Shown here piece after piece: positions 60,283 through 64,000 of a stretch of 64,000 nt of DNA. The DNA comes from Fimicolochytrium jonesii (lineage: Eukaryota): contig NW_026515671.1 in the NCBI RefSeq assembly GCF_025526975.1, forward strand, positions 1,674,001-1,738,000, read 5' to 3'. Positions within the stretch are counted from its first letter, which is position 1. Each line of letters begins with the position of its first letter. The notes beneath the pieces were generated by a model. It worked only from the letters and a program-made list of their open reading frames with translations. It was not told the origin of the DNA and did not search any database. A program made the translations under genes and the position numbers.

Positions 60283-62287
60283 ATGTGGGACCCATACGGC
60301 ACCCAACAGCAGCAGCAACAGGCCGCAGGGGCAGGTGGCGATCCACAGAAGACGACGTTGTGGATGGGCGATTTGGAGCCATGGATGGAGGAGAATTATA
60401 TCAGGAGTTTGTGGTAATGTTTTTTGTGTGATTGGGGGTTGACTTCATTGTGGGGATTGTGTATTGATGGGTTTTGTGTGTTAATAGGGCGGCGATGGGG
60501 GAGCAGGTTAATGTAAAGATGATTCGGGATAAGATTACTGGGTAAGCGTTGGTGTGAGGTTTGCGGGAATATCGAGCGACAGGGAGTAATGATGCCGGGA
60601 TGGCCGCCATCGGTGTTGTTTCGCGTCGGAAGGGGCATTCCGAGTGCGGACAAGGGCGATGAATGTCGCCGGAGGTGCAAAAATGATCCCGCATGTCATC
60701 AAAATGTCCCATCCGCCGTGCGTCCCTTCTTTGTATCCTCAAGACCGAGCCCGCTGACAATCTCCTCTCATTCACAGACAAAACGCAGGCTACTGCTTCC
60801 TCGATTTCCCCACCAACCAATCCGCCAACCGCCATCTCAATAATGTGAACGGCAGCCTGATACCTGGGACGAACCGAATGTTCAAGTTGAACTGGGCGTC
60901 GGGTGGAAGAGATATTAGTACGAGGTATGAGATTTGTTCGGGTGGTAAGGAGGGTTTTCTTGCTGATGCTGATACTACGCTTTACCGCCCTGGTCTGGTA
61001 GGGAAGAGCGAGGCCCGGAGTTTTCGGTGTTTGTTGGAGATCTTGGACCTGAGGTTACCGATGCCGTTCTACTGGTATGTCTGCGAGAATCGTCATCATT
61101 AGACGAGCTTGCGATGTACTCATATCACCCTCTACTTCTTTCAAAAAGGCAACGTTTCAACAAGCCCGCTTCACAACCTGCAAATCAGCGCGTGTGGTCA
61201 CTGACCCAGCCACCGGCGCATCGCGTGGTTATGGTTTCGTCAGGTACGTCCACCCATCCTCCTCACTATCCGTTTGTCCCAACCTCCGCTCCTTCACTAA
61301 ACAATCCACATCGTCTCCCCAGATTCACCGACGAAGCCGAACAACAGCGCGCCCTTACAGAAATGCAAGGCGTGTACTGCGGCAACCGCGCCATCCGCGT
61401 CTCCGTCGCCACGCCGCGCAACAACACCGGAGGCGGAGGAGGGATGAGAGGTGCGGCGCAGCAGGGTTATTATCATCCGGCCCAGCAGCAGTATGATGCG
61501 AATAATACGACGGTGTTTGTTGGGGGCTTGGATGGGAATATCTCGGATGATGAGTTGAGGAGGTATGTTCGATGGGAGAGATCTCTTGTTCCGCGGTGGA
61601 CGCGACACGCTTTGAGTGGTTGATTGATTGATTGATTGAACCTTTATTTCTTCGGCAGTTATTTCCTCCCATTCGGCGAAATCGTGTACTCCAAAATCCC
61701 ACCCAACAAAGGCTGCGGGTTCATACAGTTTGCCCACCGCCAGTCCGCCGAGATGGCTATCATGCAGATGAACGGCGCTATCATCGGTAAAATCACGAAC
61801 TCCCCTCTTCTCTTTCCCCACCCCCCACAATCCCACTAACCCTCCGGTCCTATTCCTAGGCGGCATCCGCGTCCGCCTCTCCTGGGGCCGCACGCAACCC
61901 TCCACCCCCAAATCCGATCCCTCCTACCGCTCCTCCGCCCCCTCCTCGCCCTACATGTCGCACACCCCGCCCTACGGCACCTCAGGCGGCCCGCCAAATC
62001 TGCATTTCAACCCGATGACGATGATGGGCATGCTGGGCCACCACCCGCATCACCATCATAACCAGCAGATGCAGATGCAGATGATGCATCAGATGCATTT
62101 GCAGCAGCAGCAGATGGGGATGGGGATGGGTGGGCAGAGGGGGGTGGTGGATGAGCAGCAGCAACATCGTAGCGCCACTTCTACTGGTGGTGCCACTGGC
62201 GGTGCTGGTGAAGAGGCGAGTGAGGAAGAAGGGTTTGCGAGGAGGAAGGAAGATGGGACTGGGAAGAGTGAGCCGCGGGCTGCGTAA
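60283..62287 (+). CDS. Triple-RRM RNA-binding protein (Nam8/Ngr1/TRNAU1AP family), multi-exon
   Basis: TTLWMGDLEPWMEENYI, AGYCFLDF, FKLNWASGG, FSVFVGDLGPEV, SRGYGFVRF, NNTTVFVGGL, KGCGFIQF, VRLSWGR; Q/H/M-rich tail. Confidence 0.93.
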
Positions 62288-62695
62288 GGCGCGCCCCCAT
62301 ACTATATTTACGTCGGGGCGCGGAGACGGAAAGTGGGAGGTCGGAGCCCCAACAGCAACACACAGCGGGAAGAACCCAAAAGCGGGCAGATAGCCCCCGG
62401 GGTTTATAGGCATAGCAAAATAGTATTACAACTGTCTCACCCCGCCGCCGCCCGTTGAAAGGAAAGGCATACCATTACAACAAAGCAAAGCCATTTTGTG
62501 AACGTTGAAAGAGGGCATTGGGGATATCTATTGCTGTAGACGTGCGGAAAAAAAAAGCATCAACGCGCAGTCCCAGGTATCCAGCAGTATCCTGACCGTG
62601 CGGAAACATGAAAGATACCATATGTAATCAGATACCATTGATGAATGTCATTACACAGCTTTATGTTCGAACAGTTTTGACTGTTTCCCGACAGC

Positions 62696-62769
62696 TACAA
62701 GTTGCCATCATCGGCGACGCCTCAGGCAGAGGTACAATGATGTGGATGGCAGATAACCACCACGGAAAA
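62696..62769 (-). ncRNA. Candidate Fanzor omega-RNA scaffold / transposon right end
   Basis: Starts ~24 nt after the Fanzor stop. Self-complementary TGCCATC...GATGGCA stem encloses a CCTC-TGCCT-GAGG hairpin; ends in TA. Boundaries inferred by analogy to characterised Fanzor1 loci. Confidence 0.55.
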
Positions 62770-62792
62770 TGGGATGGGGTGAGGATTCTAGA

Positions 62793-63643
62793 CTACCTAC
62801 GGTTACGGGAGAATACGTCTGGTCTGCGGCCATTGCCAAACACCACCGAACGCACAATCGAGAGGAAATTCTTGGTGCTTAGGACGTCCCGATTGTGCAC
62901 TCTCATCCGTAGTGGTCGTCTTCCAGGAATCTCAAATGGCGTCCAGTCTTGGTTGATACATTTGGGGTTGGGGCAACCCACCAATCCATGGACGTATTCC
63001 ATTCTTCCCTTTCGGGCTTGCCACGGCCGAGGTGACAGCCGGGGTCGGATGTTTTTCTTCACACGCCCGTGGCAGTCTGGGCACACGGAAGACGTTCGAT
63101 ACTCATCTAACAAGTAGCATGGAATGCTGTTTCTTGCAAAGAGGGTGCGGAATCTGATTTCCATGATGAGTTAGCATATTAAAATACTTAAAAAACAATG
63201 ATGGTCACTCACCCCTTGGTCTTTGATGACTCCTGAAAGCGCATGGTTTTTCCAGCGTCGCTCCAATCACCCAAGATGACGGCAAAATGCTTTCCATACA
63301 GGCGTCGCATGTTCTTGATGAGCTTGCTCTCAGACTTTTGCCGCAGTGAGAACGCCTTGAATCTGCGAGCGACGTGAATCTCATCCTGGTAAAACTCATC
63401 CAGGGCGGGATCTGGGATATGGATGTCAGCCCATGTATTACCAAATTTGAAGACAAAGCATGATACATCATACCCGCATGTTCGTAATCCACAATGAACG
63501 CTGAGAACGCCTCAATGTCCATGCTCTTGTGCGACGGAATATGTGATTCCATCTCAGCGATGCCGGCATTGATCTTTCGCTCTGTCATGTCTCGTTGAAA
63601 GTACCGAGACTTTGTCTCGACCGCCCGTTGATTGGATGTGTAT
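62793..63643 (-). CDS. Fanzor1-type (TnpB/Cas12-related) RNA-guided nuclease, C-terminal ~243 aa; exons 63643-63474, 63411-63213, 63153-62793; 5' part not in window
   Basis: Spliced frame is intact: YTSNQRAVETKSRYF...LDEFYQDEIHVARRFKAFSLRQKSESKLIKNM...VILGDWS...TKG|FRTLF...YLLDEYRTSSVCPDC...VHGLVGCPNPKC...HNRDVLSTKNF...RPDVFSR. These are RuvC-II (E), zinc-finger and RuvC-III (D) motifs. Introns of 62 and 59 nt have GT-AG ends and CTRAC branch sites. Confidence 0.88.
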
Positions 63644-63682
63644 CTGGTATGGGGTGGTGCATTGTGAGATTACTACTGCCCT

Positions 63683-63878
63683 GCTGTCCCCGCTGTCCCC
63701 GCTGTCGCCGCTATCCCCGCTGCCCATCATCGGCGACGCCTCAGGCAGAGGTACAATGATGTGGATGGCAGATAACCATGCCCCTATCCCCGCTGTCGCC
63801 GCTATCCCCGCTATCCCCGCTGTCGCCGCTGTCGCCGCTGTCGCCGCCGCTATCCCCCCTGTCGCCGCCGCTGTCCCC
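63683..63878. repeat. 9-bp GC-rich minisatellite (GCTRTCSCC)n, ~14 units, interrupted by a 53-55 nt insert
   Basis: Units gctgtcccc/gctgtcgcc/gctatcccc read directly at 63683-63718 and 63783-63878. Confidence 0.9.
63724..63778. repeat. Exact 55-nt direct repeat of 62705-62759
   Basis: CCATCATCGGCGACGCCTCAGGCAGAGGTACAATGATGTGGATGGCAGATAACCA occurs identically at both positions. Confidence 0.97.
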
Positions 63879-63949
63879 GGTTTCCGAGTTATACAGCCCG
63901 TAGTGCAACATATGACCGTAACCATGTCTGTGTTCCATAGACGTCATCA

Positions 63950-64000
63950 GACACTGTGTCCGAGTGGTTAAGGAGTTTGCCTCGAAAGCAAATAGGCTTT
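63950..64000 (+). tRNA. tRNA-Ser(CGA), 3' end beyond the window
   Basis: GACACTGTGTCCGAGTGGTTAAGGAG (acceptor 5' strand, A-box/D-arm), then anticodon stem TTTGC-CTCGAAA-GCAAA (anticodon CGA at 63983-63985), then the start of a long variable arm. Confidence 0.88.

Follow-up and report, generated by a model that had tools for sequence, protein, structure and literature searches.

Introduction

How does an exact piece of an omegaRNA scaffold come to lie a second time, about 1 kb from the first, inside a tandem array of short repeats? The question is raised by one locus in a 64-kb stretch of DNA from a chytrid (the whole stretch is referred to here as the window, and all positions are counted within it), in which 55 nt from the putative scaffold of a Fanzor1 element recur within a 9-bp minisatellite. 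Elements of this kind have been described in S. punctatus. The Spu-1 elements of this species have an inverted repeat of 30 nt at each end (Saito et al., 2023, PMC10432273), and SPu-1 was described with terminal inverted repeats (TIRs) of 33 bp and presumed duplications of TA (Bao and Jurka, 2013, PMC3627910). SpuFz1 reads a guide of 14–15 nt from the flank, uses the TAM CATA, and makes staggered cuts with 5′ overhangs (PMC10432273), and its published scaffold is 75 nt long, with TTTTCCG at positions 2–8 (Saito et al., 2023, supplement, “OmegaRNA sequences”). One literature search pairing Fimicolochytrium with Fanzor returned only a paper that names both in unrelated places. Read data for the locus were taken from small shares (0.07 and 0.05) of two metagenome DNA runs, referred to as X1 (soil) and X2 (straw).

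An Exact 55-nt Repeat Within a Minisatellite

Repeat finding identifies a direct repeat of 55 nt between 62705–62759 (copy 1, the source) and 63724–63778 (copy 2, the insert), with 100% identity, in the same orientation and at a spacing of 1019 bp. Copy 1 corresponds to positions 12–66 of the putative scaffold. A search of the 64-kb window at up to 3 mismatches returned these two matches in total, and none of 100 shuffled sequences gave any match; the mismatch-free recurrence described in the initial, sequence-only reading of this DNA is thereby confirmed by two procedures. Copy 2 is flanked by a 9-bp tandem array, which Tandem Repeats Finder (TRF) delimits at 63679–63722 (4.9 copies) and at 63787–63879 (9.7 copies). 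The left part of the minisatellite, taken as 63679–63723, consists of 9-bp units, and the right part, taken as 63779–63879, consists of 9- and 12-nt units. The motif TGCCC occurs on either side of copy 2, at 63721–63725 and 63779–63783, with 53 nt between the two, and with this bracket the insert is also readable as 58 or 64 nt long. A third TGCCC is found at 63677–63681 in the same low-complexity array. TRF and inspection of the sequence thus agree with the first description of copy 2 as splitting a 9-bp array and being bracketed by TGCCC. The array has no second occurrence within the window.

On the minus strand, the minisatellite (63679–63879, including the left part) reads as (Ser-Gly-Asp)n, and its irregular units all have lengths divisible by 3 (9 or 12 nt). 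This frame has an opening ATG at 63937, only 13 nt away from a tRNA gene.

The Truncated Fanzor1 Gene and Its Neighbors

Judged by its translated exons, the gene beside the array is a Fanzor1 of the SpuFz1 family, encoded on the minus strand. Three coding blocks are retained: a first block (RYTSNQRAVETKSRYF...) at 63474–63645, where tblastn aligns residues 46–102 of the relative P0001 at 63645–63475; a middle exon (...AVILGDWSD...) at 63213–63411, to which tblastn aligns residues 103–173 of P0001; and a last exon at 62793–63153, comprising RuvC-II/III and the zinc-ribbon/NUC region, identified by phmmer, PDB 8GKH, and tblastn, and closed by the stop codon TAG at 62793–62795. The blocks are separated by two GT..AG introns of 62 nt (63412–63473) and 59 nt (63154–63212). 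For the last exon, phmmer found 239 proteins at E ≤ 0.001; the best relatives are uncharacterised Fimicolochytrium jonesii proteins with 94 and 92% identity, and S. punctatus SPPG_02771 is 59% identical. The match to SpuFz1 (PDB 8GKH, E 2.4e-30) places the window element in the same nuclease family as SPu-1/SpuFz1, and the Parasitella Fanzor1 structure 9CF0 is matched with E 2.4e-11. The sole Pfam match of the exon translations, Cas12f1-like_TNB, is sub-threshold (E 0.035).

The last exon retains the motifs LLDEY and HNRD. In tblastn searches with full- and near-full-length relatives, the window retains the C-terminal ~243 residues alone, corresponding to residues 46–288 of P0001 and 370–599 of P0006; residues 1–45 of P0001 and 1–369 of P0006 have no match in the window, and the homology ends at 63645. 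By the same searches, the N-terminal ~390 residues, including the RuvC-I motif IDPG, are absent from the window, in which neither a complete catalytic set nor the WED and REC domains were found. An inverted copy of the right end, as expected of a left-end repeat, is likewise lacking in the window. Because the N-terminal ~390 residues with IDPG are absent and a tRNA gene begins at 63950, this Fanzor1 copy is a dead, 5′-truncated pseudogene, and the array with copy 2 stands in place of its 5′ part. In this respect, the window copy is unlike SpuFz1, having lost RuvC-I, WED, REC, and the left inverted repeat.

Between the first retained block and the array lies a junction segment (63646–63678, minus strand), which reads SHNAPPHT and is either an intron remnant or a variant coding segment. 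SHNAPPHT stands directly upstream of RYTSNQ and resembles HPHNAPPRI of the paralog P0003, which likewise lacks IDPG. In the window copy (63646–63669, minus strand) and in P0003, these residues replace 22 residues that bear the RuvC-I IDPG in P0001 and in P0151. A variant segment common to the window copy and P0003 suggests a nuclease-dead subfamily that itself multiplied. P0151 is a 626-residue F. jonesii model in which a Fanzor1 fragment is fused to a CUE-domain protein (Pfam CUE, E 6e-12), and the fusion probably arose because the annotation ran on from a Fanzor copy into a host gene.

The junction segment also holds the motif ATACCAG, which is present on the minus strand, ends at 63644, and had been taken for the acceptor of a Fanzor intron containing copy 2. 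The placement of copy 2 in such an intron is not borne out, as tblastn finds no upstream exon in the window and the tRNA gene starts at 63950. With the gene 5′-truncated, RuvC-I missing, and the tRNA gene ~170 bp upstream, copy 2 cannot be shown to lie in any intron; an intron reaching exons beyond the tRNA would have to exceed the 59- and 62-nt introns of this gene several times in length. An intron reading of the insert itself was also rejected: the only GT..AG pair around copy 2 spans 57 nt, and the Ser-Gly-Asp frame needs 3n+1.

Upstream of the Fanzor remnant, the order is array, copy 2, array, ~70 nt of unique DNA, and the plus-strand tRNA gene, of which the window end leaves the 5′ part (63950–64000). 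The Rfam tRNA match scores 25.9 bits, below the gathering score of 29 (E 0.0099), covering model positions 1–49 of 71 with the 3′ end cut; the anticodon-loop region is Ser-like by eye, and ARAGORN, given an incomplete gene, finds no tRNA at 63950. Unitigs of X1 and X2 that derive from other tRNA copies begin matching at 63949–63957, and Rfam finds no family besides the cut tRNA. The truncated element and the minisatellite occupy the upstream region of this tRNA gene. A neighboring host gene at approximately 60300–62300 (plus strand) encodes at least one RNA-recognition motif (RRM_1, E 1.6e-8, open reading frame 61636–61839) and a low-complexity tail rich in His, Gln, and Met, in which imperfect triplet repeats occur at 62063–62161.

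The Right End and the Predicted OmegaRNA

Two X1 unitigs match 62695/62696–62754 with 1–2 mismatches and then continue in unlike sequence, and three such loose ends fall at 62695/62696; furthermore, three X1 unitigs share ...CTACAAGTTG before the 55-mer and then differ. Because the X1 unitigs and the window diverge at 62695/62696, the element ends at 62696 with TA (minus strand). A distance of 75 nt back from this terminus leads to 62770, where the sequence starts, with TTTTCCG at positions 2–8, exactly as does the published 75-nt SpuFz1 scaffold, and this start lies 23 nt after the stop codon. On the basis of position, length, 5′ motif, and mapped terminus, 62696–62770 (minus strand) very probably constitutes both the right end and the omegaRNA scaffold of this SPu-1-like Fanzor1, in keeping with the first reading, which had placed copy 1 inside a putative scaffold. 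Copy 1 lies 9 nt inward of the terminus. In an ungapped comparison made by eye, with no computed alignment, 29 of 75 positions are identical to SpuFz1, with 20 of 36 in the first 36; no alignment by eye could be made for the 3′ half (identity at 9 of 39 positions). A predicted stem-loop 1 at positions 8–29 is in the same place as in SpuFz1, with the loop UUAUCU versus GUUGUCGCG. The fold energies of the scaffold are not better than those of shuffled sequences (z −0.2 to −1.1).

A metagenome scan with a Fanzor alignment yielded four loci (L001–L004) with 48–58% protein identity, none of which has DNA similarity to the right end. At L001 (3229–3362), a distant metagenomic relative of 48% identity to the Fanzor1, ...AATTCCG is followed by a small hairpin ~35 nt past the stop codon, loosely like TTTTCCG and stem-loop 1. 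A search for paralogous right ends through gene models, using an antisense open reading frame of 173 residues over copy 1, gave 140 candidates, none with E ≤ 1.

The predicted guide, i.e., the host flank that would form the 3′ part of the omegaRNA, is placed at 62681–62695 (minus strand) by analogy with the 14–15-nt guide of SpuFz1 and from the X1 divergence point. It has no match to the array at up to 3 mismatches, and its three other hits elsewhere in the window are at chance level (19 of 100 shuffles give at least 4). Since the X1 unitigs share the last ~60 nt and then enter at least three flanks, the right-end family is multi-copy in a soil organism as well; like SPu-1, the window family is thus multi-copy with variable flanks where the guide would lie. 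As a by-product, base-level positions are obtained for the right terminus of an SPu-1-like chytrid Fanzor1 family and for its 75-nt candidate scaffold.

Origin of the Second Copy

We consider the chance somewhat better than even that copy 2 is a non-functional templated insertion (filler DNA), for which scaffold DNA of the neighboring dead Fanzor1 was copied in cis. This reading follows from the continuous register of the array, the identity at the left junction, and the 55/55 match to a copy 1 kb away. With 55 nt removed, 41 of 54 lag matches are obtained across the insert, and with 64 nt removed, 49 of 54, the lag-9 identity within the array being 0.83; removal of 58 nt, corresponding to a TGCCC duplication, gives at best 24 of 54. 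Triplet register is kept with 55, 58, or 64 nt removed. Since the 9-nt register is continuous once 55 or 64 nt are taken out, the array predates the insert, and the insert therefore interrupts a pre-existing array while an identical template lies 1019 bp off. At the left junction (marked by a slash), the source reads GTTGCC/ATC and the insert GCTGCCC/ATC, sharing 2 nt (CC) or, with a 1-nt C slip, TGCC; no microhomology is found at the right junction.

The neighboring right end is favored as the template because its identity to copy 2 is complete, versus 1–2 differences in 50–60 positions among the X1 members. Perfect identity had been regarded as a sign of either a recent event or selection. 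The window differs from two X2 unitigs by 1 and 4 mismatches in 151 nt, i.e., by 0.7–2.6%, so that 0.4–1.4 differences are expected in 55 nt and selection is not needed to explain the identity. The context also speaks for a templated insertion, a tandem array being prone to breaks and slippage, and so does the decay of the element, with residues 46–288 of P0001 only, no inverted right end, and the tRNA gene close upstream.

The proposed course is as follows. A break or stalled fork would have arisen inside the unstable 9-bp minisatellite, a 3′ end in the array would have primed on the scaffold DNA 1 kb away via CC or TGCC microhomology, and ~53–57 nt would have been copied before the end was rejoined to the array. 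The same complex event may have deleted the 5′ half and the left end of the element. The insert would be inactive today; if transcribed, it would yield a partial scaffold without the 5′ strand of stem-loop 1 and without the guide-adjacent 3′ bases that SpuFz1 needs. A length of 53–57 nt is long for typical polymerase-theta insertions, and this length and a template distance of 1 kb are both at the upper end for end-joining inserts. The locus otherwise resembles the filler DNA of polymerase-theta and break-induced replication mediated by microhomology (MMBIR) in its short nearby copy from the same molecule, its junction identities, and its repeat-rich fragile site next to a deletion. Templated insertions at microhomology have been described for both polymerase-theta end joining and MMBIR (PMC7165422, PMC8421209).

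Among the three explanations originally offered for copy 2 (a repair scar or templated insertion at a break, possibly one made by the nuclease itself, a second guide cassette, and a tiny mobile unit), the templated insertion is accordingly the best fit, and the part assigned to this nuclease has no support, its gene being dead and its predicted guide finding no counterpart in the array within 3 mismatches. We infer the event from one locus. Two observations could count against it: TGCCC on both sides might represent a genuine target duplication of 5 bp, a feature not expected from simple template switching, and the X2 unitig that covers the left junction could stem from a paralogous copy, which would favor an inherited structure.

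The same X2 unitig bears on whether the insert is absent from the organism's DNA and arose as a mis-assembly or from a chimeric read, which we consider very unlikely. A low-complexity array beside a repeated element is a typical site for assembly errors, and the right junction (63778/63779) has no independent unitig across it in X1 or X2, the left junction alone having one. Against an error, this 151-nt X2 unitig matches 63595–63745 with 1 mismatch and runs from unique sequence of the Fanzor exon through the left array to 22 nt inside copy 2; because bridging was defined as 31 letters past a junction, its evidence against mis-assembly is only suggestive. A joint that skips the insert (an empty allele) was not seen among the X1 and X2 unitigs aligned to the window, the cover being sparse there. 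Copy 2 is probably not a product of assembly. It is scarcely credible as a second guide cassette with its own downstream guide, forming a multi-guide locus. Its orientation is that of the gene and the scaffold core is exactly conserved, as such a cassette would have it, but copy 2 comprises scaffold positions 12–66 only. With positions 1–11, stem-loop 1 has lost the 5′ strand of its outer 4 bp, and with positions 67–75 the guide-adjacent bases and the terminal TA are gone; because these bases and the element terminus are lacking, a guide cassette is very unlikely, and the original ranking of this option as the weakest, on account of the missing outermost scaffold bases, holds good. Contacts to the SpuFz1 protein are made by the base of stem 2 and by A72/A75, C40–G70 being the only dispensable part of that scaffold (PMC10432273). 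Furthermore, the sequence downstream of copy 2 is simple repeat and not unique DNA, the region 63700–63800 folds no better than shuffled sequences (z +1.2), and the nuclease gene is dead. Copy 2 is like the ghost Spu-1 elements in being scaffold sequence away from an intact nuclease gene, but ghosts retain the inverted repeats of both ends, all 75 nt of the scaffold, and a guide in the flank (PMC10432273), none of which copy 2 has. The proposal of a tiny mobile unit finds no support either: the X1 continuations of the 55-mer are the normal right-end context at 3 of 3 left ends and 1 of 1 right end, so that none of the 4 unitig ends bearing the 55-mer lies in a non-element context. Searched with a 30-nt core of the 55-mer, the viral_contigs and genome_contigs collections gave no hit, and the 55-mer shows no terminal inverted repeats by eye; the TGCCC bracket is present, and removal of 58 nt breaks the 9-nt register. 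A MITE-like element with copies at several loci is not supported by the same X1 count (0 of 4), the window having two copies, one of them within the Fanzor right end.

The arrangement might instead have been inherited, as a truncated, non-autonomous subfamily carrying the minisatellite and the internal partial scaffold and propagated as such; we regard this as unlikely, though not negligible. Decayed copies are numerous in the source lineage (the P0002 cluster has 6 members with models of 101–184 residues, and P0003 lacks IDPG), S. punctatus has 134 gene-less ghost elements (PMC10432273), and the X2 unitig with the same left junction and 1 mismatch could be a paralog. Yet the X1 right end, which occurs in at least three flanks, shows the array context at none of the four unitig ends of the 55-mer; there is no left-end inverted repeat in the window, in which the array is unique, and the tRNA gene is found where the 5′ part of the element should be. 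An internal partial scaffold duplicate in a minisatellite is not mentioned for Spu-1 elements in the consulted sections of the two descriptions (PMC10432273, PMC3627910). A staggered cut with a 5-nt 5′ overhang, made by the Fanzor RNP of another copy or by another nuclease or transposase, would account for TGCCC by fill-in and for the insert by capture of scaffold DNA. TGCCC directly flanks 53 nt, and with SpuFz1, cleavage falls after base 16/17 of the non-target strand and after 20/21 of the target strand, so that 5′ overhangs of 3–5 nt result (PMC10432273). This origin is nevertheless improbable: removal of 58 nt breaks the 9-nt register (24 of 54 versus 41 and 49 of 54), although triplet register is kept; a TGCCC match is cheap in this array, as the third copy at 63677–63681 indicates; as read from the sequence, neither strand has a CATA at the distance expected; and, at this locus, the guide matches nothing in the array with 3 or fewer mismatches and the nuclease is a truncated one. 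Because 55, 58, and 64 nt all keep triplet register and the array has 12-nt units, the duplication model is only weakened; for the pre-insertion site, a staggered cut predicts one TGCCC and template switching a plain ...GCTGT CCCCGCTGT... array. A cut guided specifically by another Fanzor copy is improbable to very unlikely. The patch might also have been templated by RNA, as a reverse-transcribed omegaRNA fragment captured at a break. The insert lies wholly inside the predicted omegaRNA, as this would require, but its ends (positions 12 and 66) match neither predicted RNA end, it carries no guide part, and nothing sets it apart from a DNA-templated copy, so that we hold an RNA template to be highly improbable. 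Taken as a whole, a natural scar of RNA-guided cutting, with an RNP from another Fanzor copy, fill-in of the 5′ overhang, and a patch from either scaffold DNA or reverse-transcribed omegaRNA, is a long shot.

Perspective

What the copy 2 locus shows is most likely a rearrangement scar of an ordinary kind, left in a chytrid's decayed SPu-1-like Fanzor1 element. Copy 2 is not to be counted as a second guide, nor the locus as a multi-guide Fanzor locus, and as read here it matters little in itself. The locus does provide a case on which the idea of repair footprints left in hosts by Fanzor elements can be tested. If it were a scar of RNA-guided cutting, it would be a genomic footprint of Fanzor activity in a native host, and if many scaffold-derived patches with 4–5-bp duplications existed, they would constitute the first in vivo evidence of Fanzor cutting in a native genome.
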